DNA from: Lentisphaerota bacterium
GTDB lineage: Bacteria; Verrucomicrobiota; Kiritimatiellia; UBA8416; VGWI01
NCBI GenBank assembly: GCA_016873655.1
Contig: VGWI01000004.1
Span: forward strand, 160-64,159
Length of the DNA: 64,000 nucleotides
Direction: 5' to 3'
Below the pieces are notes generated by a model, which saw only the letters and a list, made by a program, of their open reading frames with translations, searched no databases and was not told where the DNA came from. Made by a program: the position numbers and the translations under genes. Shown here in pieces: positions 6,001 through 25,714 of the stretch. Each line of letters opens with the position of its first letter. The stretch's first letter is position 1.

Positions 6001-9000
6001 GTGGAGCAAGGGCGGAACGATGAGCAACATCTTCAGGGTGGCTTACTCCCCCTGGCCGTATACCGCAGAGTACGACATCTTCTCCGGGGCCGCCGCCTAT
6101 GATTCGGAGAACAACAGCTACAGCGTGCCGTGGACTGTCCCTGACAGGCTCGGGCTGACCAGGATAATCGTCGAGAACCTGGACAAGCCGGTGATTCGCG
6201 ACGAGTCGGATATCTTCTACATCGTCGGCAGGTTCCAGGTTCTCTTCCCGAACGGAGGGGAGACGAGCCTCTACGCACGGAAGCCCGCCACGGTCAGGTG
6301 GTACACTTGGGGCGGCGTGTCTTCGGTTAATCTCTTCTACTCGATAGACCCGCTCCATGCGGACGATTCGTGGAAGAAGATCAACTCCTCGCCGGTTCCG
6401 GTAACCGGCTACGGGACCGAACCTTCGACGTACACCTGGACCGTGGCAGATGTCGGGACTACGATCAGTTCGGTGCGCCTGCGCGTGGAGCAGGCTGACA
6501 TGGCCGGCGCGCTTGACGACTCCGACGCCGACTTTTCGATCAACTACTACACCATCGTCTGGAACGTTCTCGATCAGCAGAGCGGCGAGCACCTGAACAA
6601 CCTGGTCCTGAGCGAAAGCACGGGCACTTCGCAGTCCGACCTGACCTCGCCGGTGACCCGCAGGTACCCGTACGGCCGCTTTGACTCAATCTGGTCGCGG
6701 CTGTACTTCTACGACTATGTCAGTTTCAACTGGCTGTCCGAGCCTTCGCGCGAGATCACGATCATGATGAAGCGGTCTGACGTGGAGGCCGAGTACAGGG
6801 TCATGGCGAACATCACTTACGAGGGCGGCGCGAACGACACACTCTCGGCCTACGCGTGGCTCGAGAGGGCGGGGCGCGTGATGCTCGACCCGTCGGAGTG
6901 CACGATCCTCATCTACGACAAGAACGGCGTTTCGGTCACCAACCTGGTGAACGCGTTGCCGCAGCCGGAGACGGGCGTGTTCCAGTTCAAGTGGGACCAG
7001 GTAACAAGTGTGCTTGCAAAGGGCGAGACCTACTATGCCCGCGTTGACATCAAGTACTCCCGGGAGACGTTCTCATCCGTCATCACCTACACGCTGCGCA
7101 TCTCGGCCGACCAGGCCGCCATTGACGAGATTTCGGCGGCGCTGGCTGTGGCGGAGACCAACATCACCGGCCGGATCGGCGGGGTGAGCAACGTTGTCCA
7201 GAGTCTGTCGGATGCCCAGGCCATGTTCAGGGCGAGGGTCACGAACCAACTTGACTCCATCTATGTCGGCACGGCGGACATGCGCACGAACCTGTCGGCC
7301 TTTGTCGGGTTGGCGACAGGCAGCCTGGCCCGTATAGAGGGCAGTGTTGACGTGATACTGCCCGGCGTGACGAATATCCGCGCGAGGCTGGCGCCTATCG
7401 AGGAAAACCTGGTGGCAACGCTTGCGCGCATCCTGACGCGGCCCGATTCGGTGGCCTTCGGTTCCACCAACCGCATCCTCTACAAGACCAGGGCCGACGC
7501 TCAGAACGTGACAATATCCATACCCGAGCTCAATCCCCCGTACAACGCGCCGATGACGATGGTGATAGCGGGCATATACGAGAAGGTGCTGATCGCCGAC
7601 TGGGGGACCAACAGCTATCGGGTTGTCTGTTCCGACGACAGGTCCAGCGACAGCATAATACTCAACGTCACCGGCGGGACCCTTGGCGGCATGCCGGGCC
7701 TGTTGAGTTCGATGAGCCACAGCCTCTCTGAAGTCCGCAGCAACGTTACCGAGATGACGACGATCATCCAGGGAATAGAGGGGCTGGACAAGCTCGGGAG
7801 CATAGCCACCAATCTGAATCCGCTCATCGAAGCCCTCGGTTCCGTTCCGTGGGGCGCGCTTTCGAACGTGAGCGACGTGGCCAGCTACCTGCCGGACATC
7901 TACACGACGGTCACAAACACCGATTACGTTGTCCGGAGCATCCAGAACCTGACCAACATCACCGGGATCGCGGACCAGATAACAAACCTCCAATCCGTTG
8001 TCCGCAGCATGCAGGATCTGGCCGACCTGCAGACAAACGTGGCTCTCCTCGTGAACTCGCTTGGCGGAGCCGACCTGTCCCAGCTTGGCAACACAATGTC
8101 CAACGTCGTCAGGGCGGTGGAGGACCTGGGTTCACTCAAGAGCGTGCAGGACCAGATAACCAACCTGACTGCCGCGGTGAGGAGCCTTGATGAACTGGCG
8201 GTTTTGCAGACGAACGTGGCCGCGCTTGCGCGGACGATGGTCGGGGTCAATTTCCAGGACTTCGGCGCCCAGATGACGAACATGGTTGCGGCGATCCAGA
8301 GCATGGGCGAGTTGCGCGACATTCAGGGGCAGATAACAAACCTGGCGTCGGTGGTTCGCGGCATGCAGGACCTGGCGGTGTTGCAGACGAACGTGGCTGC
8401 GCTCGTAACAACGATGAGCGGGGTGAACCTGTCGGTGTTCGGCCGGCAGATGACAAACCTGACGGCCGCGATTCAGAGCATGGGCGATCTGTCGAACGTG
8501 CAGGCCCAGATAACGAACCTGGTCTCCGTGGTGCGGGGGCTGGATGAGCTTGCCGGTTTGCAGACGAATGTCGCGGCCCTGGCGAGGACGATGGTGGGGG
8601 TGGACTTCGACGGTTTTGGCGTCCAGATGACGAACATGGTTGCGGCAATCCAGAGCATGGGCGAGTTGCGCGACATTCAGGGCCAGATCACAAACTTGGC
8701 GTCGGTGGTTCGCGGCATGCAGGACCTGGCGGTGTTGCAGACCAACGTTTCCGCGCTGGTTACCACGATGGGCGGCGTGAACCTCACGGTGTTCGGCCGG
8801 CAGATGACGAACCTTACGGCGGCAATCCAGAGCATGGGCGACTTGTCGAACGTGCAGTCCCAGATAACGAACCTGGTGTCTGTCGTGGAGGGGCTTGATC
8901 AGCTCGCCGCTCTGCAGACCAACGTCGCTTCGCTTGTGAGTTCCATGGGGGCCACCGACCTGGGCGTTCTCGGCCGTCAGATCACCAACATGACTGCGGC

Positions 9001-10282
9001 GATCAGGACAATGCAGGACTTGTCGGTGGTACAGGGGCAGATCACGAACCTGGTGAGCGCGGTCAGGGGGTTGCAGGATCTTGGTGTGATGCAGACGAAC
9101 GTCTCGGATCTCGTGACCATACTGCGCACCGTGGACATGAATGCGCTTGGCCGTCAGATGACGAACCTTGTCAGCGCCATTTCCGGGATGGACCAGATCG
9201 GGGACCTGCAGGCTGAGATAACGAACATGGTGGCCGTGTTGAGCGGGGTGGGCGGTCTGGAGCAGCTCGGAACGAACATCAACCGGCTGACGCAGTCGCT
9301 GTCGGGGTCGGATCTTCCCTACATAATGAAGTCGGTATCCAACACTTGGACAGTGGTGCGCGGGCTTGGCGACCTGTCCGGTCTCGAAACGGACATAGCC
9401 ACGCTCTCGGCGGCGGTCGGCGGAGTTGACCTGCCGCAGATGGAGAGTGACGTGGGTACCGTTCTTGGCCTGGTGCAGGGCCTGGGTGGGCTTGGGGCGC
9501 TTTCCACGAACGTGGCGGCGCTGTCCCAGGGGTTGTCCGGTGTGGACATGGCGGCGATGAACAGAAGCATAGCCGATACGCTCAGCCGGGTGCTTGGGCT
9601 GGAGACTGGAATGAGCAGGGTCCAGTCGGCGGTGGGAGGCATTGATCTCTCGGCAATAGATCTTTCCGCTGTGGAAAGGGTGGAGCGTTTGCTCGGAAGA
9701 TCCGGAAGCACTGACCGGAACACGTTCTTCGGCAGGTTGGCGCAGGTCAGCTCGCAGATGGAAGCGATGGGGCTTGCCTCTTCCGACGCCGCGAAGAAGG
9801 CGCAGTCCGCAAAGTCGGAGGCCGCCAATGCTGCAAGCGGGATAGACGAACTGAAGGCCGCACTCCAGAACATGCAGGGGCTCGATCCGCAGAAGCTGAC
9901 GGCCATTCTTGAACAGGTCCGGAGTTCGCTGGATGCCGCGCAGAAGGGAATCAGCGAGATCCCGAAGGGGCTTGATCCCGCTGCGCTGGAGAGGGCGCTG
10001 GCGGACGCACTGCGCAAATTCAGGCAGCTTGCCGCGCAGGGCGGGTACCCCGAATTCCCGCTGGTGACCGAGTTCGGGAGGGGTGCTCCGTCCGAGCCCG
10101 GCAAGGAACCAGCGAAAGGCGGACCTCCGACGGAAGCTGGCGAGGGGGTCGACATGAAGACCATCGCCAAGCTAAGCCGCGACATGGAGGAGATAGACAG
10201 TTCGGTGCGGCTGATCAAGCGCCTCATCGAGGAGAAGTTCCAGACTCCGGTTGTTGAGTCCAGGCTCATCGGAGTCGAGTAA
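2..10282 (+). CDS. Giant secreted/surface protein, 5'-truncated (>3420 aa): LamG/concanavalin-A-like domains, tandem Ig-like modules, C-terminal helical/coiled-coil repeats
   Basis: Frame is open from window start to TAA at 10280-10282. Three LamG-like units (WxH(V/I)AxV...(L/I)Y(L/I/V)(N/D)G...F.G.(L/V/I)DE(I/V)). About 9-10 modules with PNG(G)E.W...I.W...YS.DGG.TW. 59-aa TN-rich repeats near the C-terminus. Confidence 0.85.
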   Translation, partial: APGPGELGGKLFVGPDGTEGTFYSARNSDLQNSTAFSRIERYLQYKVYMIGQSDGKETPYLDSTGVIGTRSVAFDNTLGDFAVGAGLSGVVFVPGSEERGRLVLARNSNGGFRKDGYYTSRTFDAGISVFWDKLNWIGPSELAASSSMLGLWHVNGGWADATGKGRNGQALTNMAYYSKAKLGSQSAVFDGVSTRVSLPLPTNSIGAVEFWVNPAGADGGLMDFGGGRQFMVRGRMAAVTGFGFAGPLVYLNGRQNARLLERGWNHVAVVFPNGFAVSSPIVVGYAGGLWFRGMLDEIAMYSVALDGGAIKSHFLAGGGRAAGAAKFQVRASNTFPIPGIVPFVGPGNLPSDYFTASGAALPSEVWGKRYFQYRSFLEGDGDATPHVNSVSIEYSGAASGIETDGSAAQLLQGVFSNTKWLGTDQSPYDIATVPGLVNIDSVVEVSIEGLWHMDETNWAAGASVLDSSGKNRNGDPQGGASPSPAAKVGTASGLFNGSGQYVILPSADLAGDFTAGAWFRSTATARSAVMVRTDGGFILEINGNGSAAVAGAAAFIVQLPGKRAVATSAAASSLSDGAWHHIAGIRKGRGIYLYIDGTRVASALLASDFGGLGVGQMEVARNPETPPGYFAGNVDEVILYSRALSDAEIVEKTAVGFNIRNQVTFESTVYDADGPAIWESIAWGENGPFGDAPSASDPDLIGLWRLDSVTPGGVAVDSSAAAQNGAYSGSAAAGAGRFSGCMSLSGAGGGVTVTGSATLEPELVSISLWVNMTDVDSRALIEKRSGGNGYAIYTDASGRPSFWVNGSSCTWAGGMRASEWTHVAAVYDGQRIYLYVNGKQVADGLASGDFLGGNLLIGSSSSGYQGFTGLIDEVAVYKRAFVPEEAADHAKMGFGNIRIQARAGNSPDLSGVAYIGRDGTSGSFFDDSNESSMFGIVPLGQYFQFRYVMTVEDGLLAPIFSGAAIKQSAYPTDKPWVAPAVGQGQLFYGNLLGFNQKMGTNDNDRVRYQISGDEGANWYYWSASSWKKYSVSDGEPWNFANDYLTTSNRIVTFYQQLYAKSGGVFRFRAMLRSNGDDQVALDSVKMDYSEGRLVVLEPNGAETNQRAWLVDSPYTVKWSWRGVVSNNLRLQYSRDGGSTWSLIANGIPNTGSYSSWLTPPAASEQMLVKISDNNNSSIYDQSDSVFHLSDAFQIRAPNGGEVWYKSATNTIVWRSPGAAAARGALVDIRYSHDGVDFSQIIARGAPNVQGSSSNTFRWMIEPGVFPMPLPSASARIRVHAYDNTNPQFNGQDDSDLPFTLAGITVTAPVQGGYYNNGSDLTLQWVSRLGGPKVAMDFSRDNGVTWQTNVLTDVANVDGQNTYVWFINELPSDTARVRIRSLSDNRIYGVSGVFQLADVSVTSPSAGENWELRTQKTIRWESGGAGNLVDLYYSYDDGVTWTTIASNVFNTASNEYAWTVQPYPSDKARIRVVSHLDRTNLLDVSERFNIAGVKIEYPNTKVVWPKGGTDSIRWSYNQAGSQGAIYTSTDGGLTWQLLGNRGLGNRSINWQPTQPTARAMARIVSLDPPGWAVAMTDDSDEFFTIGGITVNAPTNAQLFTVGEPGQISWTSAGSADSGGGEYARLYYTTTGGATSNFIAEVGNNEIYPGNNVYTWNIPDTVSPSLNAQVMIKGGPFTGFSPVFTLRGMRITAPTDTSILDIGKVSKITWSSAGLDENANGYFFLSLDGGVTFEPAAINASPIYVASGFYDWNIPSNSTPSVRAVLKFVVQNSPKQSDINYQIKSRQFVLRGLKIKEPKTGSIWRHGSTNLIHLVASRAGDFATFYYSSDGTSYDTKPGNEVRKNWPLSDGDSYVPWTVEFSRLPSANARLKAVSTIATTYSEPFAVHGVKVTRPTSSSIWAAGETNIVTWTGVGTSGSYDVFVEKPGGPTVQIGVGVPGPTVNWLVDGSVVGEGVVVRVRDTSGQFVGVSAPFLVVAQPTVIVVSPASNDLWRVTDTYSVTWSKGGTMSNIFRVAYSPWPYTAEYDIFSGAAAYDSENNSYSVPWTVPDRLGLTRIIVENLDKPVIRDESDIFYIVGRFQVLFPNGGETSLYARKPATVRWYTWGGVSSVNLFYSIDPLHADDSWKKINSSPVPVTGYGTEPSTYTWTVADVGTTISSVRLRVEQADMAGALDDSDADFSINYYTIVWNVLDQQSGEHLNNLVLSESTGTSQSDLTSPVTRRYPYGRFDSIWSRLYFYDYVSFNWLSEPSREITIMMKRSDVEAEYRVMANITYEGGANDTLSAYAWLERAGRVMLDPSECTILIYDKNGVSVTNLVNALPQPETGVFQFKWDQVTSVLAKGETYYARVDIKYSRETFSSVITYTLRISADQAAIDEISAALAVAETNITGRIGGVSNVVQSLSDAQAMFRARVTNQLDSIYVGTADMRTNLSAFVGLATGSLARIEGSVDVILPGVTNIRARLAPIEENLVATLARILTRPDSVAFGSTNRILYKTRADAQNVTISIPELNPPYNAPMTMVIAGIYEKVLIADWGTNSYRVVCSDDRSSDSIILNVTGGTLGGMPGLLSSMSHSLSEVRSNVTEMTTIIQGIEGLDKLGSIATNLNPLIEALGSVPWGALSNVSDVASYLPDIYTTVTNTDYVVRSIQNLTNITGIADQITNLQSVVRSMQDLADLQTNVALLVNSLGGADLSQLGNTMSNVVRAVEDLGSLKSVQDQITNLTAAVRSLDELAVLQTNVAALARTMVGVNFQDFGAQMTNMVAAIQSMGELRDIQGQITNLASVVRGMQDLAVLQTNVAALVTTMSGVNLSVFGRQMTNLTAAIQSMGDLSNVQAQITNLVSVVRGLDELAGLQTNVAALARTMVGVDFDGFGVQMTNMVAAIQSMGELRDIQGQITNLASVVRGMQDLAVLQTNVSALVTTMGGVNLTVFGRQMTNLTAAIQSMGDLSNVQSQITNLVSVVEGLDQLAALQTNVASLVSSMGATDLGVLGRQITNMTAAIRTMQDLSVVQGQITNLVSAVRGLQDLGVMQTNVSDLVTILRTVDMNALGRQMTNLVSAISGMDQIGDLQAEITNMVAVLSGVGGLEQLGTNINRLTQSLSGSDLPYIMKSVSNTWTVVRGLGDLSGLETDIATLSAAVGGVDLPQMESDVGTVLGLVQGLGGLGALSTNVAALSQGLSGVDMAAMNRSIADTLSRVLGLETGMSRVQSAVGGIDLSAIDLSAVERVERLLGRSGSTDRNTFFGRLAQVSSQMEAMGLASSDAAKKAQSAKSEAANAASGIDELKAALQNMQGLDPQKLTAILEQVRSSLDAAQKGISEIPKGLDPAALERALADALRKFRQLAAQGGYPEFPLVTEFGRGAPSEPGKEPAKGGPPTEAGEGVDMKTIAKLSRDMEEIDSSVRLIKRLIEEKFQTPVVESRLIGVE
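7960..9300 (+). repeat. Intragenic tandem repeat, 59-aa (177 bp) unit with a higher-order 118-aa (354 bp) near-identical duplication
   Basis: QMTNMVAAIQSMGELRDIQGQITNLASVVRGMQDLAVLQTNV... begins at 8270 and again at 8624 (offset 354 bp) with near-identical DNA; about 6-7 progressively diverged units. Boundaries approximate. Confidence 0.85.
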
Positions 10283-10359
10283 CGGCCGATCACGCCGTGC
10301 ATCGGGGCTTTTTCAATTGCGGTGTCGCCATGCGTGCCGGTAGCATCCTTCACAGTCCA

Positions 10360-11676
10360 ATGATGAATACGCCAGTCATACCGTGCGTTCGACAGTTGGC
10401 GTGCATGTTCTCCTGCGTATTGTTTCTTGCCGCCTGGGGCATGCCGGCTTCGGGAGCCACGGTCAGGTTGCGCATCACGGTTGTCAATCCCCGCGAGACG
10501 AACCAGGTTGCCGATGTGCGTGCCAATCTCCCCGCTCGTGTGGGAACGAATGATGTTGTCAGCTGGGGCGGGCTCGACTGGGGCTACGACACCAGGAACG
10601 ACATCTACTATGTGCACAAGAAGGTCGAACTGGGCCCCAAAGAGGGCAGGGTGTTCGATATCGACATCCGTGATATATGGACGATCGAACCGGGCGAGAT
10701 AGACGGCATCAATCGGCATGCGGGGGCTCTTGTGGACAAGCTTCGCGGCGCGGAGGTCCACGCAACCGCAACCGAGTTGCAGAAGCTCATAGAGAAGAAC
10801 CTTGCCGACATTCTGGAGCGGCAGGACAAGTTCGCGATCGGGCCGGGGGTGGAGGCCATACAGCACATCAATGCCTACGAGACCAACCTGGGCATGCTCA
10901 GGCGGGTCAAGAGGGACGTGGGGATGATAGAGAACCTTGTGCTGGGGACAGGGCAGGACATAGGGGAGATGGTCGGAGAGAGCAAGCTCCTCGCGAAACC
11001 GGAACGGGGCGAAGATTCGGAACCCGCTGAATACAAGACGGCCATCATGGAATTCACGGTGGTCAACCCTTCGGTATCCGAGAAGAAACAGGCCGTTGTA
11101 CGCGAGAGCCTTCCGGAAGAGGTGAAGATATACGATGTACTGGAAGCCGGAGAGCTCGAAGTCGGTGCGGACTACAACACCGGGATGTGCTACGTCTACA
11201 AGGAAGGGATAGACCTGGCGCCCGGCGAGAAGAAGACATTCCGCGTGACGATAAGGGACAAGTGGGATGTCAACGGGCCGAGGGTGGCATCCCTGATTGC
11301 CTCGGCCAGCAACCTGCTTTACAGGGTGGAGGTCCGGGGGCGTTACAAGGGCGTGGAGGAAGCGATATCCGGAGTTCTTGGCGGGCTTCTTGAGATAAGG
11401 GGTGAAGAGGGGCCGACGGCCGTGAATGACGCGTATGTCGCATTCTTTCGTGAGCAGACCGCAAGGGTTGACATTCTGGAGCAGAAACTCAGGCGCGTTG
11501 AGGCCGCTTTGCGGCCGATAGAGCGGAAGTCCAAGTGGGGTTTTGCGGTCCAGGCGCCCAGCAAGAAGACCACATGGCTCATCATCTACATAGTCCTTGG
11601 CTTCCTGGGTTTCTTCAGTGTACTTTTCTTCCTGAGGTGGTACGGAAAGAGCAAGAGTGAGAAACTGGGCCTGTGA
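10360..11676 (+). CDS. Exported protein with an internally duplicated domain and a C-terminal transmembrane anchor (start uncertain, 10297-10384)
   Basis: Signal-peptide-like N-terminus (...FLAAWGMPASG). Two copies of TVVNP...LP..V...D(V)...G.L..G.D......Y(Y)V.K...L.P.E...F...IRD.W. C-terminal WLIIYIVLGFLGFFSVLFFL followed by basic tail RWYGKSK. Confidence 0.75.
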   Translation: MMNTPVIPCVRQLACMFSCVLFLAAWGMPASGATVRLRITVVNPRETNQVADVRANLPARVGTNDVVSWGGLDWGYDTRNDIYYVHKKVELGPKEGRVFDIDIRDIWTIEPGEIDGINRHAGALVDKLRGAEVHATATELQKLIEKNLADILERQDKFAIGPGVEAIQHINAYETNLGMLRRVKRDVGMIENLVLGTGQDIGEMVGESKLLAKPERGEDSEPAEYKTAIMEFTVVNPSVSEKKQAVVRESLPEEVKIYDVLEAGELEVGADYNTGMCYVYKEGIDLAPGEKKTFRVTIRDKWDVNGPRVASLIASASNLLYRVEVRGRYKGVEEAISGVLGGLLEIRGEEGPTAVNDAYVAFFREQTARVDILEQKLRRVEAALRPIERKSKWGFAVQAPSKKTTWLIIYIVLGFLGFFSVLFFLRWYGKSKSEKLGL

Positions 11677-11779: not shown

Positions 11780-13243
11780 ATGCCGTTGAAGATCAACCCG
11801 ATAAAGCTCATCGAGCACGGGGTTGTTGCGGAGATCCGGCAGGATGTCGTGCACGTGACCGGGCTGACCAACTGCATGAACGGGCAGTTGGTGAACATCG
11901 GGGTTTCGGCGCAGGGGGTGATTGTCGGGTTTGACCCGGACTACGTGCTCGTGCTTGTTGTCCGCGAGGGCGCCCCGATCAAGCCCGGTGACGCCGTAAT
12001 CACGACCATAGACCAGTTCCGTGTTCCTGTCGGGGAACGTTTCATCGGCCGGAGGCTGAACGCCCTGGCAGAGCCGGCGGACAACGGCGGTCCGATACGC
12101 GAGGATGGCGCCAACCCGATCTTCGGAGCTGCGCCGGGCGTGCTCGAACGGGTTCCGCTGGCGCAGGTTCTCGAAACCGGCACGAAGATAATCGACATGA
12201 CTTTGCCGATAGGAATGGGGCAGCGCATGTTGATCATCGGCGACCGCACCACCGGCAAGACTACCGTCGGGGTCGATGCGATCATGAACCAGAAGGGCAA
12301 GGACGTGGTCTGCATCTACTGCTGCATAGGCAAGGCGGAGGCGGCGCTTGCCAAGGTGACGGAGTCTTTCGACAAGGGGCGCGTCTGGGACTACGGAATG
12401 ATCGTTGCGGCAACCGCTTCGGACCCGATGGGGCAGCAGTATCTGGCCCCGTACGTGGCGTGCAGTCTCGGCGAGTACTTCATGTACACGAAGGGGCGCG
12501 ACGTCCTCGTTGTTTTCGACGATTTCACGAAGCACGCGTGGGCTTACCGCCAGATATCTCTGTTGCTGGAGCGAGCGCCGGGCCGTGACGCGTATCCCGG
12601 CGATATATTCTATATACACTCCCAGCTTGTTGAGCGCGCGGGGAAGCTCAACGCGGCACGCGGCGGCGGGTCCATGACGCACCTGCCCATTGTCGAGACG
12701 CTGCAGGGCGACGTCGCAGGCTATATTCCATCCAACATCATTTCCATGACCGACGGACAGGTGTACATGAATTCCCTGCTGTTCGGCGAGGGATTCAAGC
12801 CGGCAATTGACATGGGGCTTTCTGTCTCGAGGATCGGCAGCAAGGTTCAATGGAAAGCGATGAAGAAGCTTAGCGGAATGCTCAAGCTTGAGTATGTGCG
12901 ATACAAGGAACTTGAGAAGCTTACCCGGATCAAGGCCGGAGTGTCGGGTGAGGTCGAAAGGCGTTTGAATCGCGGCAAGGTTCTTGAAGAAGTCCTGAAG
13001 CAGGACGCGAACGAGCCGGTTGCGATGGAGGACGAAGTCATGATCCTCTACGCGCTTGAGCGCGGGCTGCTGGACAAGGCCGATCCTCCGCAGGTGAGGG
13101 GAATCCTGGCTGAGTTCATACGCCGGGTAAGGACGAGGCACCCCACGCTGCCGGCGGAACTGTCCCAGAAGAAGGAACTGACCGAGCCGATCAAGGAGGC
13201 GCTCAACAATGAGCTTGCGGGGCTCTCCCATACCGCTGTTTAA
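11780..13243 (+). CDS. atpA: F1-ATPase alpha-like subunit, paralogue 1 (arginine finger intact)
   Basis: Walker A GDRTTGKTT, DDFTKHAWAYRQISLLL.R.PGRDAYPGDIFY, IISMTDGQ, SVSRIG; GGAG RBS upstream. Confidence 0.92.
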   Translation: MPLKINPIKLIEHGVVAEIRQDVVHVTGLTNCMNGQLVNIGVSAQGVIVGFDPDYVLVLVVREGAPIKPGDAVITTIDQFRVPVGERFIGRRLNALAEPADNGGPIREDGANPIFGAAPGVLERVPLAQVLETGTKIIDMTLPIGMGQRMLIIGDRTTGKTTVGVDAIMNQKGKDVVCIYCCIGKAEAALAKVTESFDKGRVWDYGMIVAATASDPMGQQYLAPYVACSLGEYFMYTKGRDVLVVFDDFTKHAWAYRQISLLLERAPGRDAYPGDIFYIHSQLVERAGKLNAARGGGSMTHLPIVETLQGDVAGYIPSNIISMTDGQVYMNSLLFGEGFKPAIDMGLSVSRIGSKVQWKAMKKLSGMLKLEYVRYKELEKLTRIKAGVSGEVERRLNRGKVLEEVLKQDANEPVAMEDEVMILYALERGLLDKADPPQVRGILAEFIRRVRTRHPTLPAELSQKKELTEPIKEALNNELAGLSHTAV

Positions 13244-14696
13244 GATCAAGGTCCAGGAAAAGGGCCGGATCAAGGACATCAAGGAGATAATTGTCCGCAT
13301 AGATGGTCTTCCGACGTGTCTGAACGGCCAGATCGTTGACCTCGGTGAAGGGGTCAAGGGAATCGTGATGGGATACGACGAGCAGGAGGTCCTTGCCCTT
13401 GTGCTTGGCGATCCGGGCAAGCTCAGGATGGGCCGGGAGGTGGCGGGAGTCAGTGAGCCGTTCCAAATCCCGGTCAGTGATGCAGTGATAGGCCGGATGG
13501 TTTCGGCGCTCGGGTATCCGTGTGACCAGGGGCAGCCGGTCGAGCCGGAGTCATTTGCGCCCGTATTCAAGGACTCGCCGCCGATCACGCACAGGGATCC
13601 GGTTACGCAGTTTCTGCCAACCGGCACGAAGATGGTGGATATCTTCATCCCCATCGCCAAGGGTCAGCGGCAGTTGATTCTCGGCGACAGGATGACCGGC
13701 AAGACGGTCATAGCGCTGGATGCCATCATAAATCAGGTCGGGCGGAACGTGATCTGCATCTTCTGCTGCGTCGGGAAGTCTGTCTCTTCTCTGCAGAAGG
13801 CCATGTCGATTCTGCACGACAACGATGCGTTGTCCTACACGGCGGTGATAGTCGCAACCGACAGTTCGCCGGTGGGTGAGCAGTACATAGTTCCGTTTGC
13901 GGCTGCCTCCATGGCGGAGCATTTCGCGGCCAAGGGGCGTGACGTGCTCGTGGTGTTTGATGACCTTACCAAGCATGCGTGGGCCTATCGCCAGCTCTCG
14001 TTGCTCCTGGACAGGCCGCCAGGCCGTGAGGCGTATCCCGGCGACATATTCTATGTGCAGACTCAGCTCATGGAGCGGGCTGGTCAGTTCAATGCGGAGC
14101 ACGGCGGCGGGTCAATCACCTACCTGGGGATCGCGGAGACGTTGCAGGGCGACCTTACAGGTTATATCCCGTCCAACCTGGCCTCCATGTGTGACGGGCA
14201 GGTATGCATGAGCAGCACCATCTTCGCGGAGGGATTCCGCCCGGCGGTCGATATCTCGCTTTCTCTGTCGATCGTCGGCGGAAGAGCCCAGCCGCCGGTT
14301 CTCAAGAAGCTGAGTCGCGACATACGGGCTGACTACGCGAGATATTCTGAAGTGGTGAAACTGAGCAGGATGGGGTCCGGCCTGTCCGAAGAGGCCGAGA
14401 AGACGATCAAGAAGGGCGAAGCGATAGTCTCGATTCTGCAGCAGGGGCAGCACGCTCCTGTTTCGCTTTCGGAGGAAGTGTTCCTTCTGTATGCCCTGCA
14501 CGCCGGCATGCTTGCGCCTCTGGACCGCGAGGAGAAGACGCGCTTCACGAAGGGGATCGCCGGGTTCGCGGCAGAGAGAATGCCCGGGCTCGCGTCGCGG
14601 ATTGAAGCTGAAGCAGAGCTCACTCCGGAAATCGAGGAGAGTCTGAGGAGTCTGCTGGAGGCCTATTTCGGCCGGAAGCCTGGCGGGGGCGGGTGA
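13209..14696 (+). CDS. atpA: F1-ATPase alpha-like subunit, paralogue 2 (arginine finger replaced by Ile)
   Basis: Walker A GDRMTGKTV, DDLTKHAWAYRQLSLLL.RPPGREAYPGDIFY; SLSIVG where canonical alpha has SVSRVG; overlaps paralogue 1 by 35 bp. Confidence 0.9.
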   Translation: MSLRGSPIPLFKIKVQEKGRIKDIKEIIVRIDGLPTCLNGQIVDLGEGVKGIVMGYDEQEVLALVLGDPGKLRMGREVAGVSEPFQIPVSDAVIGRMVSALGYPCDQGQPVEPESFAPVFKDSPPITHRDPVTQFLPTGTKMVDIFIPIAKGQRQLILGDRMTGKTVIALDAIINQVGRNVICIFCCVGKSVSSLQKAMSILHDNDALSYTAVIVATDSSPVGEQYIVPFAAASMAEHFAAKGRDVLVVFDDLTKHAWAYRQLSLLLDRPPGREAYPGDIFYVQTQLMERAGQFNAEHGGGSITYLGIAETLQGDLTGYIPSNLASMCDGQVCMSSTIFAEGFRPAVDISLSLSIVGGRAQPPVLKKLSRDIRADYARYSEVVKLSRMGSGLSEEAEKTIKKGEAIVSILQQGQHAPVSLSEEVFLLYALHAGMLAPLDREEKTRFTKGIAGFAAERMPGLASRIEAEAELTPEIEESLRSLLEAYFGRKPGGGG

Positions 14697-14920
14697 AACT
14701 GACGATCTTGAATCCCAAGCACGTGATTTTCGAGGGCGACGCGTCGAGCGTGTTCCTGCCTGGCGATCTCGCGGAGTTTGAGATACTGGACCATCACGCT
14801 CCGATTGTGAGCCTGCTTGTCAAGGGCGAGATAGTGGTGGACTGGCACCGCAGGATACCCATACGGCAGGGGATGGTCAGGTTCGACAGGAACGAGTGCA
14901 TGGCTCTGGTAGAGGAATAG
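14693..14920 (+). CDS. atpC: F1 epsilon-like subunit, N-terminal beta-sandwich only (75 aa)
   Basis: MKLTILNPKHVIFEG...V.LPG..AEFEIL.HHAPIVSLL.KG matches the epsilon N-domain; GTGA overlap with the alpha2 stop. Confidence 0.85.
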   Translation: MKLTILNPKHVIFEGDASSVFLPGDLAEFEILDHHAPIVSLLVKGEIVVDWHRRIPIRQGMVRFDRNECMALVEE

Positions 14921-14944: not shown

Positions 14945-15160
14945 ATGGACAAGTTCGTAATATTTCTGGTGATGTTCGTGACGATTATCGGCCCATCGGC
15001 CGTGATAGCGGCCATCGGGTACGCGAGCATACGGGCGCTGGGGCGCAACCCCTCGGCTGCAAACAAGATACTGCAGGCCATGATTGTCGCCCTGGTATTT
15101 GCCGAGGCGATAGCGGTGGTTGCTTTGCTCATACTGTTCCAGTTGTTTGCTGGAACATAG
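14945..15160 (+). CDS. atpE: Fo subunit c-like proteolipid (71 aa)
   Basis: Two hydrophobic helices, RNP loop, conserved carboxylate in VFAEAIA; GGAGG RBS. Confidence 0.88.
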   Translation: MDKFVIFLVMFVTIIGPSAVIAAIGYASIRALGRNPSAANKILQAMIVALVFAEAIAVVALLILFQLFAGT

Positions 15161-15213
15161 GTGAATAGGCAGCCCGGGCGAACGGCCGGGGCCGCCGCAT
15201 GGAGGCGGGGAGC

Positions 15214-15960
15214 ATGCGAGAAATCATACGAATACTGATGCCGGTGGCGCTGACTTATGTGGCTGCGACAGCGCTGATGGTGTTCGCCATAAGGCGTCTG
15301 CTGCTGGGGGATACGCGCAGGGCAATGGCCAAGATCCGTGAAGTCGAAGGCGAGGTGCGCCGGAAGGAGGAGCGGATCAGGGCCGAAATCGCCGAGCACG
15401 AGCGTGACTTCGAGGCGAGAAAGATCGAGGCCCAGGAATCCATGGAGCGGCAGCGCAAGGAATCCGAGAAAGAGATGGCCAAGGCAAGAGAAAAAGCCCT
15501 GGCTGATGCCCGCAAGGAAGGTGAGCGCATAATCGATCAGGCGAGGAAGAACGAAGAGAAGCTGAGACAGCAGATAGCCCAGGACATGGAAGAGAAGGCC
15601 GTGGAATACGGCGGCAGGATATTTAAGCTTGTTTTCAGCGAGGAAATGAACGTCGAGCTCAATCGCAAGTTCATTGAGGAACTGTTGAACGCCCTTGATG
15701 AGGTGGACAGCTCAAGCATCACCGTGGATGCGGACGATGCCGTGTTCAAGAGCAGTCATCCACTTGAGGAAGAGCAGAAGGAACGGCTGAAGGAGCTCCT
15801 GAAGAACAAGTTCGGGGCTGACGTGGAGATCAACGAGACAATTGACGAAGCGCTGCTGGCCGGTCTTTCGTTCAAGCTGGGCAGTCTTGAGATAGATGGC
15901 AGCCTGCTGAGCCGGTACCATGAGGCGGTTTCGGAAGTGAAGAAGGGTATAGGCACCTGA
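15214..15960 (+). CDS. atpF: Fo subunit b fused to a delta/OSCP C-terminal-like domain
   Basis: One N-terminal TM helix, long charged coiled coil, C-terminal S.HPL...Q...L...L...FG......IDE.LLAG....LGS.EIDGSL typical of the delta C-terminus. Confidence 0.8.
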   Translation: MREIIRILMPVALTYVAATALMVFAIRRLLLGDTRRAMAKIREVEGEVRRKEERIRAEIAEHERDFEARKIEAQESMERQRKESEKEMAKAREKALADARKEGERIIDQARKNEEKLRQQIAQDMEEKAVEYGGRIFKLVFSEEMNVELNRKFIEELLNALDEVDSSSITVDADDAVFKSSHPLEEEQKERLKELLKNKFGADVEINETIDEALLAGLSFKLGSLEIDGSLLSRYHEAVSEVKKGIGT

Positions 15961-16013: not shown

Positions 16014-16949
16014 ATGCAACTTAGCGAACTCCGCAAGGAACTGAAGTTCAACCGCGAACTTGTGCAGCTCATTGAGACGCTCAAGAATATCGCGGCTGCC
16101 CAGTATCACCTGATGGAGAAGGAAAAGGAGCGGTTCGACCGCTTCATGGGTGCTTTTGCGGGTTTCTTCCGGGTCGTCAACCTTGTTGAGACGGCCAATC
16201 CGCTGGTGCGGTCGGCGTCGGACACGCTGGGGCTGGTCGTGATCACTTCCGATTCCGGGTTCATGGGCGGGCTTAACCAGGGAGTGATACGGGCTGCCCT
16301 TGCAGCGCAGGGCGAGACGCCTGACGAGAAGACGGCGCTTGTCGTTGTGGGGGAGAAGGGGCAGACGGCCTTCGCAGACATGGGCAGGGCTTTCAGGTTC
16401 TTTCCGGGAATAAGCCAGGAGACGATCTACGAGCAGGCTGTGGAGATAAAGGACCACATAGTGGAAGAGGTGCTTGCCGGCAGGATGGGCAGAGTTCTTC
16501 TGGCGTATCCGAAGCCCCTGTCCTTTTCGGCTCAGGACATAGACGTGATCAGGGTGCTGCCGTGCGGAGACCTGATATCCGTCGAGGATGAGCCCGGGGA
16601 AGGAGCGCAGGCCTCGACGACATTGCGCGGATTCATGCAGGAGTCGCTTGGGGTGATCGTGGAGTCGTCTTTCGCCGACATGGCGCAGTACCTGGCAAGC
16701 ACGTGGGTTACAAGCAAGCTTTACGAGGTGTTCGAGGACAGCAAGCTCGCGGAATTTTCCGCGAGGGCCATGCATCTCGAGGGAAGTTTCCAGAAGCTTG
16801 AGGAACAGTTGAAGAAGGTGCGGCACCAGACTTTCAAGGCCTCGCATGAGAAGATCGACAAGGGCATGCGCGAGAGCTTCGGCGCCAAGAAGGGGATGAA
16901 GAGAAGACGCAGGGGTGCAACGCAGCCGCAGGCTGCGGCTGACGCCTAG
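16014..16949 (+). CDS. atpG: Divergent F1 gamma subunit
   Basis: N-terminal helix ending NIAAAQY; VITSDSGFMGGLN (canonical SDRGLCG.FN); AEFSARAM (canonical SE..ARM); C-terminal helix. Confidence 0.85.
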   Translation: MQLSELRKELKFNRELVQLIETLKNIAAAQYHLMEKEKERFDRFMGAFAGFFRVVNLVETANPLVRSASDTLGLVVITSDSGFMGGLNQGVIRAALAAQGETPDEKTALVVVGEKGQTAFADMGRAFRFFPGISQETIYEQAVEIKDHIVEEVLAGRMGRVLLAYPKPLSFSAQDIDVIRVLPCGDLISVEDEPGEGAQASTTLRGFMQESLGVIVESSFADMAQYLASTWVTSKLYEVFEDSKLAEFSARAMHLEGSFQKLEEQLKKVRHQTFKASHEKIDKGMRESFGAKKGMKRRRRGATQPQAAADA

Positions 16950-18383
<1,434 letters not shown>

Positions 18384-18424: not shown

Positions 18425-20059
18425 ATGAACAAGCTGGGACAACGCCTTGAGGCGGATGGGCTGCTCTCCGCGGAGCGTTTCGAGGAGGCGGCGGCACGGG
18501 CCAAGGAAAGCCGGCGGCCGCTTCCTGACGTGCTCCGGGATGACAGCTACGTTGCCGAGGGGCCTCTGCTCAGCGCTCTCGGCAAGGTCTACGGGCTTCA
18601 GGTCGTTGATCTTGACGACGACACGCCGGTTGACCAGTCCGCCGTGAGATCCATCCCGCCGAGGCTCGCAACCCACTACTGCGCCATGCCGATGAAACTG
18701 GAAGACGGGGTCATAACGCTGGCGGTCTCCAGCCTTTCCGACATGGCTGTCGTTGATGATCTTGAGACCAACCTGGGCTTGAGGGTCGATCGGGTTCTTG
18801 CCACCCGGGCTGGCATCCAGCGTGCGATAAGGCGGCACTACGGAGTCGGCGCAGGCACGGTCGAACGCATACTCGGAGAGGACAGGCCGGGCGAGGCGTC
18901 CCATATGGAGACGTCGCATGATCTGGAACTCATGGCCGAGGATGCGTCGGTTGTCCGCCTTGTCAACCAGATCCTGCAGGACGCCATACGGGACAGGGCA
19001 ACCGACATACACCTGGAAAGCTACAGAGACGAGATGCTCTGTCGCAGGCGGATAGACGGCGTCCTGCAGGAGACGAGTTTGCCGCGAAGCATCCGGCAGC
19101 TCTATCCTGCCATGGTGTCCCGGATCAAGCTGATGTCCGGACTCGACATAGTCGAAAGACGTCTGCCCCAGGACGGGAGAGCCCGTGTCAACATGGGGCG
19201 TGAAGAGTTCGACCTGCGGGTCTCCATAGTCCCGGCAGTGCACGGGGAGGACATCGTCATAAGGGTCCTGCCGACACGGTCGATGCTCAACCTGGGCGAT
19301 CTCGGGTTTTCCGGGGCGCACAGGGCGGAGTTGGAGAAGTACATAGCGATGCCGCACGGCATCGTCTTTGTGACCGGTCCGACTGGAAGCGGGAAGAGCA
19401 CCACTCTCTACGCATGCCTCAACCGGCTGAACACTCGCGACCACAAAATTATCACCATCGAGGACCCAGTCGAATATGAAGTGAGAGGGGTAACGCAGAC
19501 GCAGGTCAATCCGAAGATAGGTCTCACCTTCGCCCGGGCGCTGAGAAGCATGTTGAGACACGATCCGGACGTCATGATGGTTGGCGAGGTGCGTGACCGT
19601 GAAACGGCGGATATTGCAGTACAGACGGCCATGACGGGACACCTGGTGCTCAGCACTCTCCACACGAACGATGCTGCCGGGGCTGCGGTGCGTCTGATGG
19701 ATATGGGCGTTGATCCTTACCTGATAACTTCGACGGTTCTGGTGTTCATCGCGCAGCGGTTGGTACGGGTGATCTGCCCGGAGTGCAGGGAGGCGGTTCG
19801 GGAAGCGGGGATTACGAGGTATCGTGGAGCCGGCTGCAAGACATGCGGACGGAGCGGGTACTTCGGCCGTGCTGCTGTTGCCGAGTTTCTCCCGATGCTT
19901 CCGGCCATCGCGGGCCTGATCATGGGCAAGGCATCCGCACGTGAAATACGAGCGAAGGCGGATGAGCTTGGGATGCAGACTCTTCTGCAGGACGGTCTGC
20001 GGAAGGTTGAGGACGGTATCACGACCGAGCAGGAGGTCTTCCGCGTTATCGTAGCGTAG
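18425..20059 (+). CDS. gspE: Type II secretion/type IV pilus assembly ATPase (GspE/PulE/PilB family)
   Basis: ATDIHLE, ERRLPQDGR, GPTGSGKSTT, TIEDPVEY, LRHDPDVMMVGEVRD, TGHLVLSTLHTND, CPEC...CKTC zinc motif. Confidence 0.95.
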   Translation: MNKLGQRLEADGLLSAERFEEAAARAKESRRPLPDVLRDDSYVAEGPLLSALGKVYGLQVVDLDDDTPVDQSAVRSIPPRLATHYCAMPMKLEDGVITLAVSSLSDMAVVDDLETNLGLRVDRVLATRAGIQRAIRRHYGVGAGTVERILGEDRPGEASHMETSHDLELMAEDASVVRLVNQILQDAIRDRATDIHLESYRDEMLCRRRIDGVLQETSLPRSIRQLYPAMVSRIKLMSGLDIVERRLPQDGRARVNMGREEFDLRVSIVPAVHGEDIVIRVLPTRSMLNLGDLGFSGAHRAELEKYIAMPHGIVFVTGPTGSGKSTTLYACLNRLNTRDHKIITIEDPVEYEVRGVTQTQVNPKIGLTFARALRSMLRHDPDVMMVGEVRDRETADIAVQTAMTGHLVLSTLHTNDAAGAAVRLMDMGVDPYLITSTVLVFIAQRLVRVICPECREAVREAGITRYRGAGCKTCGRSGYFGRAAVAEFLPMLPAIAGLIMGKASAREIRAKADELGMQTLLQDGLRKVEDGITTEQEVFRVIVA

Positions 20060-20082: not shown

Positions 20083-21297
20083 ATGCCGCACTACAGATAC
20101 ACAGCCAAGGATGGTCCGGACCGGATTGTTTCAGGATCCGTCAGGGCTGAATCCAGACAGGACGCCGTAGCGAAGGTTGACGCCATGGGGTACAGTCCCG
20201 TATCCGTCGCCGAGGCGGCGGAGGATGGCGGGCCGGCCCGGGACACGGCGGCGGCCGGGCGCCGGCCTTCGCGGAGCAGCGTTACTCTCTTCACCCGGCA
20301 GCTTGCGAGCCTTCTGCGGTCAGGTGTTCCGATTCTCAGGGCGCTGCGCACCATATCGGAACAGAGCGAGGATGCCCGGATGAAGGCTGTAGTCCTGGCG
20401 CTGGAGTCCAGTGTCCGCGACGGCAGAAGCATTTCGGATGCGATGTCGGAGCATGGCAGATCGTTCTCCGACTTCTACGTCAACATGGTCAGGACAGGTG
20501 AAGGCGGCGGCGTGCTGGATGTCGTGCTCTCGCGCCTGGCCGACGCCAGGGAGGCCGAGGATGACCTTCGAAGGCATGTTCAGTCGGCGTTGGCGTATCC
20601 TCTCCTTGTTGCCGCAGCCGGCTGTGTCACTGTGTTTGTTCTTCTGGCATTCTTCCTGCCGAGAATGGCCGAACTGTTCAGCAGCTATCGCCAGCTTCCC
20701 TTTGCCACGCGCGCGTTGATAGCCGTGAGCGGCGCGGTTTCCCGATGGTGGCCGGTGGTCTTGCTGCTGGCCGTCTTCGTGTTCGCCGTGCTCAAGAGGC
20801 TTGCATCGGTTGACAGGGGGCGGATGGTGATGGACAGGTTGAAGCTGAGGGTGCCCTTCTTCGGTCACGTGATCAGGGACTCCGACGTGGCCAGGTTCGC
20901 CCGCACTCTGGCGCTGTTGCTTGACAGCGGGGTAAAGGTGGACAAGGCGATGGACCTGTGCGCGGGCACCGTGCGCAACGCTGTTCTTGAGGCCGGGGTT
21001 CGCGGCGCGCGTGACGCGACCGTCAGAAGGGGGCTTCCTTTCTCAGACGGCATTCGCGGAGCCGAAGGCTTTCCTCTTTTTGTCGCCAACATGGCTGCCG
21101 TTGGCGAGGAGGGCGGACGGCTCGACGAAGCACTCCTGGAGGTGGCAAGTTACTACGAGAAAAGGGTCGCTCAGCAGACCCGTATCGCCGCAAGTCTCAT
21201 CGAGCCGGCAATGATACTTGCAGTCGGAGCCGTTGTGGGTTTCATAGTGGCCGCGATGTTGCTGCCGGTGTTCGAGATAGGAACGACGCTGAAATAG
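20083..21297 (+). CDS. gspF: Type II secretion system inner-membrane platform protein F (GspF/PilC family)
   Basis: FTRQLASLLRSGVPILRAL, GEGGG.LD.VL.RLA, ALAYP, GEEGGRLDE.L, LIEP...LLPVF; three TM segments. Confidence 0.95.
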   Translation: MPHYRYTAKDGPDRIVSGSVRAESRQDAVAKVDAMGYSPVSVAEAAEDGGPARDTAAAGRRPSRSSVTLFTRQLASLLRSGVPILRALRTISEQSEDARMKAVVLALESSVRDGRSISDAMSEHGRSFSDFYVNMVRTGEGGGVLDVVLSRLADAREAEDDLRRHVQSALAYPLLVAAAGCVTVFVLLAFFLPRMAELFSSYRQLPFATRALIAVSGAVSRWWPVVLLLAVFVFAVLKRLASVDRGRMVMDRLKLRVPFFGHVIRDSDVARFARTLALLLDSGVKVDKAMDLCAGTVRNAVLEAGVRGARDATVRRGLPFSDGIRGAEGFPLFVANMAAVGEEGGRLDEALLEVASYYEKRVAQQTRIAASLIEPAMILAVGAVVGFIVAAMLLPVFEIGTTLK

Positions 21298-21383
21298 GCG
21301 TTCAACAGGCTTTGGGGTTTACTTGGCGTGCACAGCCGCGTAGATTCAGGCAGGGGCAGGCGCGTAGATGCGGGGAGGCAGCG

Positions 21384-21797
21384 ATGACTCAGTCGAGGCC
21401 GGATTCAGGTTTCACACTGATCGAAATACTCGTGGTGGTCATCATTCTCGCTGCTCTGGCTGGTATGGTGCTCCCGCGGGTGATCCCGAGGGCAGACGAG
21501 GCCAGGCGCGACATCGCGCGCGGGGAGATAGCCGGGATATCGACTGCCCTGAACTTCTTCCGGCTGGACGTGGGGCGGTATCCAAGCACGGAGGAGGGTC
21601 TCGCGGCCCTTATGGCGTCCCCGTCAGGCAGCAGCCGGTGGAAGGGCCCGTACCTGGAGAAGCGGCCTGACGATCCTTGGAGCAAGCCCTACGCGTACAG
21701 GTATCCGGGGTCCCATAACCCTTCGGGTTTCGATGTGTGGTCTCTCGGACCGGACGGGCAGGAAGCCACTCAGGACGATGTCGGCAACTGGGAGTGA
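21384..21797 (+). CDS. gspG: Major pseudopilin GspG
   Basis: G|FTLIE prepilin motif, F.LDVGRYPSTEEGL.AL, WKGPYL, DPW..PY.Y..PG, SLGPDG...DD.GNW; GGAGG RBS. Confidence 0.93.
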   Translation: MTQSRPDSGFTLIEILVVVIILAALAGMVLPRVIPRADEARRDIARGEIAGISTALNFFRLDVGRYPSTEEGLAALMASPSGSSRWKGPYLEKRPDDPWSKPYAYRYPGSHNPSGFDVWSLGPDGQEATQDDVGNWE

Positions 21798-22285
21798 CCG
21801 GCGCAACAGTGACCGTGACACTGACTTCGGGACGGGCGAGTATCCTCTCATTTCATGCCTTTCGCGGGGCCGTGAGCCCTGCGTTCAGGGCGTCGGCCGG
21901 GCGAAATGGCTCCGGTTTCACGCTTGTGGAAGTTCTTGTTGCCGTGGCGGTTGTTTCGGTGGGGCTTGTTCTGGTTCTTCGCGCCATGAACGCTTCCCTT
22001 GCGGCGATGGAAGCCGTAAGGAGTTCCTCAATCGCCGGACATCTGACCGTCGAACGTGCTGGAGCTCTGCGAATTGCGGCATCGAGCGGCACAAGCATTT
22101 CCCTGATGTCCGGATCTGAAGACATCGAATCCACTCTCGACGGTCTGAAGTGGCGGCGCCAGACGGATCTGGAGACCGAGATAAACGGCGGGTCCAACGC
22201 GCTGTTTGTGGTCAGAGTAAGGCTGGGACGTGCGGACTCGGACAGGGAATACGAGAGGCGCTTCTATGTCGGCGGAGCGAAATAG
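21794..22285 (+). CDS. Minor pseudopilin (GspI-like), start uncertain
   Basis: G|FTLVEVLVAVAVV N-methylation motif; GTGA overlap with the gspG stop (alternative GTG at 21872). Confidence 0.75.
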   Translation: MTGATVTVTLTSGRASILSFHAFRGAVSPAFRASAGRNGSGFTLVEVLVAVAVVSVGLVLVLRAMNASLAAMEAVRSSSIAGHLTVERAGALRIAASSGTSISLMSGSEDIESTLDGLKWRRQTDLETEINGGSNALFVVRVRLGRADSDREYERRFYVGGAK

Positions 22286-22853: not shown

Positions 22854-22870
22854 TGGGCGGGGGTGGACAC

Positions 22871-23614: not shown

Positions 23615-23689
23615 TTCTGGCTCGTCGGCAAGCCGGCTTGCATGGCATTGCTGAGAGTTGGGTCGGTGTGGGGAATTGGCCGAAGACAG

Positions 23690-25656: not shown

Positions 25657-25714
25657 CCATCGGGGAACGCGTGGCAGTCGCGCCGTACTGTCCGCATGCG
25701 GGGTCAGGATCGAA

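Follow-up and report, generated by a model that had tools for sequence, protein, structure and literature searches.

In the main text of their study, Seymour et al. (2023, Nat Microbiol, PMC10066038) describe a non-respiratory, "symbiotic" F-type ATPase that is encoded beside type-4a pilus clusters in Omnitrophota, and they propose that it serves attachment and surface motility. Here, we analysed a relative of this system in a stretch of 64,000 nucleotides (nt) of contig VGWI01000004.1 from a Lentisphaerota bacterium of lake origin (assembly GCA_016873655.1). We call this whole stretch the window; all coordinates below are window positions and all features lie on the + strand. The ATPase operon of the window starts with two tandem genes for F-type alpha subunits, alpha1 (11780..13243, 487 amino acids (aa)) and alpha2 (13209..14696, 495 aa). 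The arginine finger is intact in alpha1, whereas alpha2 is a paralogue without it.

The window system resembles the pilus-linked ATPase of Seymour et al. in several respects. The same gene module is found in 54 single-alpha loci collected here, including that of Ca. Velamenicoccus archaeovorus (L062), genes of a type IV pilus or of type II secretion are encoded less than 10 kb from those of the ATPase, and the window alphas fall in the same non-respiratory clade (support 100). It differs in carrying two tandem alphas at the front of the operon, one of them finger-less. The two-alpha form comes from records titled Lentisphaerae, Victivallales, Kiritimatiellae, Verrucomicrobiota, "PVC group" or "bacterium", and not from Omnitrophota. 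The main text of Seymour et al. (PMC10066038), supplements aside, mentions neither a second alpha nor a missing subunit a nor the loss of the c-subunit carboxylate. Literature searches, Seymour 2023, West-Roberts 2023 and a 2026 Omnitrophota preprint yielded no report of two alphas or of finger loss in this system, again with supplements set aside, although Supplementary Fig. 13 and Table 8 of PMC10066038 could be relevant. The single-alpha pilus-linked ATPase is thus already known, and the two-alpha, finger-less variant appears to be new.

Other F-type ATPases are more distant. Like canonical AtpA (TIGR00962, the atpA equivalog, cut-off 484.45 bits), the window alphas have a three-domain fold with Walker A and Walker B motifs, and alpha1 passes the cut-off with 516.8 bits. 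Unlike canonical AtpA, alpha2 lacks the finger and falls short with 466.3 bits, both alphas start later, and no subunit a was found in the operon. The cut-off of PRK13343 (554) was missed by both alphas (513.8 and 524.1). A comparison with the type 2 and type 3 ATPases of Mycoplasma is drawn in the main text of Seymour et al. (PMC10066038). These F1-like ATPases (MMOB1660/1670 of the gliding motor and MSC_0618/0619) are also alpha/beta pairs that do not serve synthesis and stand beside surface machinery. Our comparison with them uses NCBIfam scores only, and these stay far below the cut-offs of MMOB1660 (600; alpha1 387.5, alpha2 373.8) and MSC_0619 (520; alpha1 293.4, alpha2 281.2). Unlike the Mycoplasma systems, the window system keeps genes for c, b/delta, gamma and epsilon.

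N-ATPases pump ions and possess a subunit a. The window operon is similar to theirs in being an extra, divergent F-type operon beside a housekeeping one and in having a b subunit with a delta-like end (TIGR03321, 42.8 bits). It departs from them in that no subunit a was found in the operon and that the scores fall far below TIGR03324 (cut-off 750.5; alpha1 466.6, alpha2 473.9) and TIGR03305 (cut-off 752; beta 491.2). By NCBIfam score, canonical atpA lies nearer to the window alphas than do either the type 2/3 families of Mycoplasma or those of the N-ATPases, whose cut-offs were all missed. Hetero-oligomeric P-loop rings with degenerate subunits are represented by F1 itself, whose alpha is a non-catalytic paralogue of beta, and by AAA+ hetero-hexamers with inactive arginine fingers. 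As in those rings, a duplicated ring subunit would here have dropped a catalytic element and stayed under selection as a structural or regulatory member. The difference lies in what was dropped, namely the trans-acting finger of an alpha that is already non-catalytic, and without it the adjacent beta site would be silenced and F1 would no longer be three-fold symmetric.

Results

Both alphas are recognised by Pfam ATP-synt_ab (E 7.6e-70 for alpha1 and 7.4e-67 for alpha2) and ATP-synt_ab_C (E 7.2e-27 and 1.7e-22), while the N-terminal barrel family stayed below its cut-off in both. Solved F1 alphas in the PDB match them with a best E of 3.9e-120 and 35-41% identity, and alpha1 and alpha2 share 44% identity across 478 residues. 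At the finger position, the motif GLSVSRIGSK of alpha1 holds Arg351 (codon AGG, 12830..12832), whereas the motif SLSLSIVGGR of alpha2 holds Ile355 (codon ATC, 14271..14273). In a HMMER alignment to solved F1 alphas, Ile355 stands beneath the Arg of GLSVSRVGG. Codon 14271-14273 has the same letters in contigs of four further lake-water runs, which rules out an assembly error. An earlier note on this DNA had read SVSRIG in alpha1 against SLSIVG in alpha2, a loop changed from IISMTDG to LASMCDG, and Walker A kept in both. All of this was confirmed, with NIISMTDGQ and GDRTTGKT in alpha1 and NLASMCDGQ and GDRMTGKT in alpha2. It had further named KHAWAYR, a Gln in place of Arg and GYIPSN as derived features shared by the pair. 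Both alphas do carry KHAWAYRQ, GYIPSN and the Gln (HSQLVER/QTQLMER), but KHAWAYR is not peculiar to the system and also occurs in the 13 canonical alphas that we fetched, which had been picked by a DDLTKHAW search pattern.

The role that the same note gave to the alpha arginine finger, completing the beta catalytic site in trans for turnover, agrees with the data on alanine mutants in the pertinent part of a review (PMC5380711). In those mutants, rotation is 10^3-10^4 times slower and torque about half, and the direction of rotation is not abolished.

To place the loss among relatives, contigs from one genome per species were scanned with alpha2, and the 80 loci obtained were annotated by BLAST with the window proteins. 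Thirteen of them (L001-L012 and L056) have two alphas in the gene order of the window, which brings the two-alpha loci to 14. Another 54 (L013-L055 and L057-L067) have a single alpha and the order giant open reading frame (ORF), epsilon, c, b/delta, alpha, gamma, beta, GspE, GspF; most are Omnitrophota, and some are labelled Planctomycetia, Nitrospirota or others. The remaining 13 (L068-L080) are ordinary ATP synthase operons, hereafter canonical. The finger column reads Ile in 13 and Val in one of the 14 alpha2 proteins. It is Arg in every full-length alpha1 (12/12, excluding two cut by contig ends), in all 54 single alphas and in 14/14 canonical alphas, the genome's own included.

A wider search gave the same picture. 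A collection of 5.8 billion proteins was searched with the window alpha2, which returned 120 proteins, and then with the most basal alpha2, that of L011, which added 87 new ones. One of the 87 is a canonical alpha (38% identical) with Arg; the rest leaves a set of 206 alpha2-type proteins, which includes the window's own alpha2 and overlaps the loci above and is not an independent count. Of these, 199 have Ile and 7 have Val in the finger column, and no Arg occurs there. Loss of the Arg in alpha2 orthologues, whose conservation the earlier note had proposed to test, is a fixed and robustly conserved feature. Among the best 150 representatives of clusters at 50% identity, 141 have Arg, and the two clean exceptions, P0132 with Ile and P0135 with Thr, are both alpha2-type; two further rows are gapped at this column and five are fragments or misaligned tails. 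When 150 other genomes of the phylum were sampled, a single one gave an alpha2-type match (G122:C283:723-3597), with alpha1 alongside. Its congener G143 has an alpha1-type match alone (G143:C131:4613-6040), and the other sampled genomes gave no match. With the tandem pair confined to one genus of this sample, its distribution is patchy among the species genomes sampled.

The second alpha is maintained. Its ORF is open and full length in 14/14 loci, with 113 invariant positions, and the 206 alpha2-type proteins measure 439-573 aa. Estimates of the ratio of non-synonymous to synonymous substitution rates (dN/dS) by NG86 were 0.185 for alpha2, 0.156 for alpha1, 0.123 for beta, 0.19 for gamma and 0.178 for GspE; these values are rough, with dS saturated, above 1 and often not computable. 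Sequence change has been somewhat quicker in alpha2 than in alpha1 (median pairwise identity 0.58 vs 0.66). The dN/dS of alpha2 is similar to that of neighbouring genes, which speaks for purifying rather than relaxed selection, one of the alternatives that the earlier note had put forward for checking.

A quick tree of 59 rows was built from all 12 full-length alpha1 and all 14 alpha2 sequences, 25 of the 54 single alphas and 8 of the 14 canonical ones, leaving out 29 single and 6 canonical alphas. The 51 system alphas form one clade apart from the 8 canonical alphas (support 100). Alpha1 is one clade (support 99) and alpha2 another (support 100), both on long stems, and their placement among the single alphas is unresolved. 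A tree that holds alpha1 and alpha2 together has a likelihood better by 4.5 and was not rejected (approximately unbiased test, p-AU 0.606), and both clades are nested among system alphas, in keeping with the previous proposal of an old duplication within this system. The alpha1 and alpha2 sub-trees share pairings (for example L002 with L056), and L008, L009 and L011 lie toward the base in both. We read this pattern as one old duplication followed by joint inheritance of both alphas, although the second alpha may instead have been gained by transfer from another lineage.

Besides the finger, alpha2 has changed little at conserved sites. At only 8 positions does alpha2 have a conserved residue other than the one common to alpha1 and the single alphas, namely A123S, V126I, A218D, H284Q, S285T, T328C, R355I and T386S, and at 7 of the 8 the canonical consensus is the alpha1/single-alpha residue. 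Several of these changes are close to fixed in the set of 206 (S123 in 203, D218 in 206, Q284 in 193, T285 in 200 and C328 in 201). Column 328 is Cys in 14/14 alpha2 proteins of tandem loci (14190..14192 in the window) and Thr in all alpha1, single and canonical alphas. This alpha2-specific Cys replaces the Thr of the VISITDG-type loop, two residues past the conserved Ser of that loop, and the Ser itself is kept in 205 of 206 alpha2-type proteins. The loop presumably borders the catalytic site together with the finger (alpha-S344 and alpha-R373 in bovine F1). The nucleotide site of alpha2 is preserved, with the Walker A Lys (K165) and the Walker B pair (D251/D252) present in 206/206. Its AlphaFold model (predicted local distance difference test, pLDDT, 78.7) has template modelling (TM) scores of 0.86-0.89 to the alpha chains of many F1 structures.

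We looked for residues that could stand in for the lost Arg. The earlier note had singled out the Arg of the nearby GGRAQ as a possible substitute. However, 12/12 alpha1 and 54/54 single alphas likewise have a Lys or Arg at +4 from the finger, which they all retain, and this rules out the residue as an alpha2-specific compensation. When the alpha2 proteins of the two-alpha loci were compared with alpha1 and the single alphas, no alpha2-specific basic residue gained in the nucleotide-binding domain was found. Nor was a new basic residue seen in the beta catalytic motifs of two-alpha relative to single-alpha loci; the beta motifs themselves are unchanged. Alpha2 also lacks two basic residues of the C-terminal domain that alpha1 and the single alphas keep. 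A basic patch on the alpha2 crown (K12, K18, K71 and R76) appeared specific in the 14 loci, but only K12 holds in the 206 proteins, and the patch was discarded.

The operon is flanked on one side by the gene for a giant surface protein and on the other by a GspE/F/G cluster of the type II secretion or type IV pilus kind. Directly upstream lies a giant, surface/adhesin-like ORF (2..10282, more than 3426 aa with its 5' end open), which matches Laminin_G_3, a ConA-like lectin family (E 8.6e-52), and also Laminin_G_2, Kre9_KNH and BNR. Giant ORFs precede the ATPase module in many related loci too, including those of Omnitrophota. It is followed by p459 (10297..11676, 459 aa), an exported protein with a C-terminal membrane helix. 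In an AlphaFold2 model of p459 (pLDDT 80.2), an N-terminal signal or hydrophobic segment leads into a unit of one beta-sandwich and three long helices that occurs twice, and the chain ends in the C-terminal membrane helix. No Pfam or NCBIfam family was found for p459, and a Foldseek search against the PDB gave nothing at E <= 0.001. In single-alpha loci, p459-type sequence forms the C-terminal end of the giant ORF.

The two alpha genes overlap, and an AGGAGG Shine-Dalgarno-like site (13193..13198) lies within the 3' end of alpha1, 10 nt ahead of the alpha2 ATG. Alpha1 and alpha2 occur together, with the alpha2 ORF overlapping the end of alpha1, in every one of the 14 tandem loci. A short epsilon follows (14693..14920, 75 aa; ATP-synt_DE_N, E 9.7e-11), whose GTG start overlaps the alpha2 stop codon. 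Next come a c-like subunit (14945..15160, 71 aa), whose two helices form a hairpin joined by a GRNPSAA loop and whose second helix bears a Glu, and a b/delta-like stalk subunit (15199..15960) with an N-terminal membrane helix, a coiled coil and a delta (OSCP)-like C-terminal end (OSCP, E 1.8e-10). Gamma (16014..16949; ATP-synt, E 1.3e-29) and beta (16980..18383) complete the set, so that gamma, epsilon, b/delta and c are each encoded by one gene in the operon. The catalytic motifs of beta, including PADDLTDP, are intact, and it scores 534.4 with TIGR01039 (cut-off 462.85). Relative to single-alpha and canonical betas, those of two-alpha loci show a deletion of about five columns after HERIK. 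They also have GGAGCGKT where most single-alpha betas have GGAxxGKS.

The gene for a GspE/PilB-type secretion or pilus ATPase (18425..20059; T2SSE, E 1.7e-128, plus MshEN) starts 42 nt past the end of beta, and the same adjacency of beta and GspE is seen in related loci that extend that far. After it come a GspF/PilC-type platform protein (20083..21297; T2SSF, E 5.2e-60) and further secretion/pilus genes (21312..25656) for a GspG-like major pseudopilin, two N-methyl pseudopilins (one of them GspJ-like), an unassigned 290-aa ORF, a PilM/PilN-like protein and a GspM-like protein. The GspM-like gene is followed by one for a 503-aa protein with six MORN repeats (25631-27142; E 1.5e-45), which has no counterpart in the flanks of related loci. 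Very long ORFs, in part of the type "alpha-gamma", "beta-GspE" or long beta, were noticed at L032:4050-9408, L053:3706-6165, L020:3378-5585 and L035:4083-6314. The alpha-gamma and beta-GspE fusions of L032 are artefacts, since their joins are runs of X that stem from N in the record. The ORF of L053 is an apparent alpha-gamma fusion.

The assembly (3.08 Mb, 243 contigs, 94% complete) contains other rotary ATPases. The housekeeping F1Fo is split, with a, b and delta on C13 (about 24.5-26.7 kb) and alpha, gamma and beta on C2 (about 57.9-62 kb), and a V/A-type ATPase is encoded on C16 (about 16.5-23.7 kb). The window operon is therefore the third rotary ATPase of the genome. A hidden Markov model (HMM) of subunit a, built from canonical a, was run at E <= 10 over about 10 kb of flank per locus; it matched at 0/68 system loci and at 13/13 canonical ones. 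In this 94%-complete genome, the only PF00119 match (C13:24635-25270) lies with the housekeeping genes. The earlier note mentions neither the missing subunit a, nor the link to a secretion/pilus cluster, nor the distinction from the ATP synthase of the cell.

No protein of the module is better conserved than the c-like subunit, which shows 80-91% identity between two-alpha loci. Its helix-2 carboxylate is present in the window (FAE), whereas 12 of the 59 system c subunits, 2/14 from two-alpha and 10/45 from single-alpha loci, have Q, A, S, M or F in its place; all 11 canonical c subunits keep it. System alphas begin 8-16 alignment columns later than canonical alphas, and the missing N-terminal stretch is one that we take to be the region binding delta. 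The match of the stalk protein to delta is confined to delta's C-terminal end, and epsilon consists of the beta-sandwich domain without the C-terminal helical domain. In many bacteria, the helical domain of epsilon inhibits ATP hydrolysis. Taken together, the failure to find a subunit a, the carboxylate losses in c, the late-starting alphas, the partial delta and the short epsilon speak for a motor that consumes ATP and runs independently of an ion gradient. We infer that the operon works as an ATP-driven motor and not as a synthase.

Discussion

The explanation that we favour as a whole, with about even confidence, is a mixed, asymmetric F1 head that contains both alphas and one or more slow sites. 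According to this model, alpha1 and alpha2 would be co-translated from their overlapping genes and share the three alpha positions of a single (alpha1/alpha2)3-beta3 head. Since two alphas cannot fill three positions evenly, such a head would be built asymmetric. A beta site bordered by alpha2 would bind nucleotide but, lacking the finger, hydrolyse it orders of magnitude more slowly, leaving one or two slow or locked sites per head. These may set a resting or indexing position of the rotor relative to the stator, or act as a brake. Alpha2 is probably also the alpha recognised by the unusual b/delta stalk. Its N-terminal barrel is more conserved than that of alpha1 (47 vs 36 of 95 positions), and its longer N-terminal tail carries a nearly fixed F11 and K12. 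Together with patterns of co-variation, the barrel and the Phe-Lys tail provide a weak lead towards alpha2 as the stalk-facing alpha. A predicted complex of alpha2 with b/delta residues 130-253 scored 0.07 against a mark of 0.32, which is evidence neither way. More tentative is the full picture in which a single alpha2 position, fixed by b/delta, parks or indexes the rotor of a proton-independent, asymmetric c-ring motor without subunit a, which drives or gates the GspE/F machine and the membrane-anchored giant adhesin by mechanical force.

Several points weigh against the mixed head. The co-variation was measured by partial Mantel tests, in which alpha2 follows b/delta (r 0.47, p 0.034) and epsilon (r 0.49, p 0.049) and alpha1 follows beta (r 0.57, p 0.015) and gamma (r 0.56, p 0.027), but it comes from 9 related taxa and 9 uncorrected tests, and no p-value would survive correction. 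The 54 single-alpha loci have no second alpha, so alpha2 is an elaboration and not a requirement of the system. At the crown of alpha2, position 76 is Lys or Arg in only 93 and position 18 is Lys in 135 of the 206 alpha2-type proteins. A compensating residue may reach the site from elsewhere. Moreover, both the stoichiometry and the membership of alpha2 in the ring are inferred from sequence.

Of the alternatives, the one that survives best, though we consider it unlikely, is that the operon makes two kinds of head, an active alpha1(3)beta(3) motor and a near-inactive alpha2(3)beta(3) unit for holding, sensing or structure, possibly paired with each other. The alpha fold and the nucleotide motifs of alpha2 itself are intact, and homotypic heads are the simplest symmetric answer to three positions that cannot be divided evenly. 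Paired F1-like heads in the gliding machinery of Mycoplasma mobile also count in its favour. It is difficult to reconcile with the single gene each for gamma, epsilon, b/delta and c, and with two alpha genes that are translationally coupled and always co-occur. Going by the mutant data given in the review cited above (PMC5380711, part on the finger), a head made with alpha2 throughout would in addition be almost inert.

Slightly less likely still is that alpha2 stays outside the ring as a pseudo-enzyme adaptor, docking the head to the b/delta stalk, to GspE or to an anchor in the giant protein. The strong conservation of its N-terminal domain and tail, its co-variation with b/delta and epsilon instead of beta and gamma, weak as this is, and the loss of the two basic residues in the C-terminal domain would all fit an adaptor. 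Yet the nucleotide-binding domain of alpha2 is as conserved as that of alpha1 (144 vs 153 of 265 positions), the Ser of the catalytic-interface loop persists in all but one of the 206 proteins, and the fold matches ring alphas over the whole length. The 8 specific substitutions at conserved sites are also too few for a change of partners.

It is improbable, in our estimation, that the site bordered by alpha2 stays fast, with another residue of alpha2, of beta or of a partner replacing the finger and the head remaining functionally symmetric. F1 catalysis is described as robust to point mutations in the part of the review that treats them (PMC5380711), and the fixed co-substitutions S123, D218, Q284/T285 and C328 might reshape the site. 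On the other hand, neither the nucleotide-binding domain of alpha2 nor the beta catalytic motifs gained a basic residue, the +4 Arg/Lys is common to alphas that bear the finger, and the replacement is hydrophobic (Ile or Val) in 206/206. The only alternative that is clearly rejected is a decaying or neutral duplicate, for which the faster evolution of alpha2 and its score below the atpA equivalog cut-off might have spoken, against an intact gene in all 14 loci and 206 proteins, a dN/dS of about 0.185, 113 invariant positions and a fixed replacement of the finger.

The mixed head, which we continue to prefer, can be put to direct test, as the genes are compact and the subunits of the soluble head easily expressed, which makes stoichiometry, ATPase rate and rotation accessible. 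The system also raises the question of what an F-type rotor with a c-ring, no subunit a and often no carboxylate does beside a secretion or pilus ATPase and a giant surface protein. To our knowledge, every F1, V1 and A1 head has three identical non-catalytic subunits, and the only asymmetric F1 heads that we know of were made in the laboratory with hybrid mutants. If the proposed head is true, it would provide the first example of an F1 head whose symmetry was broken by evolution and would offer a direct route to the effect of a permanently slow site on a rotary motor.

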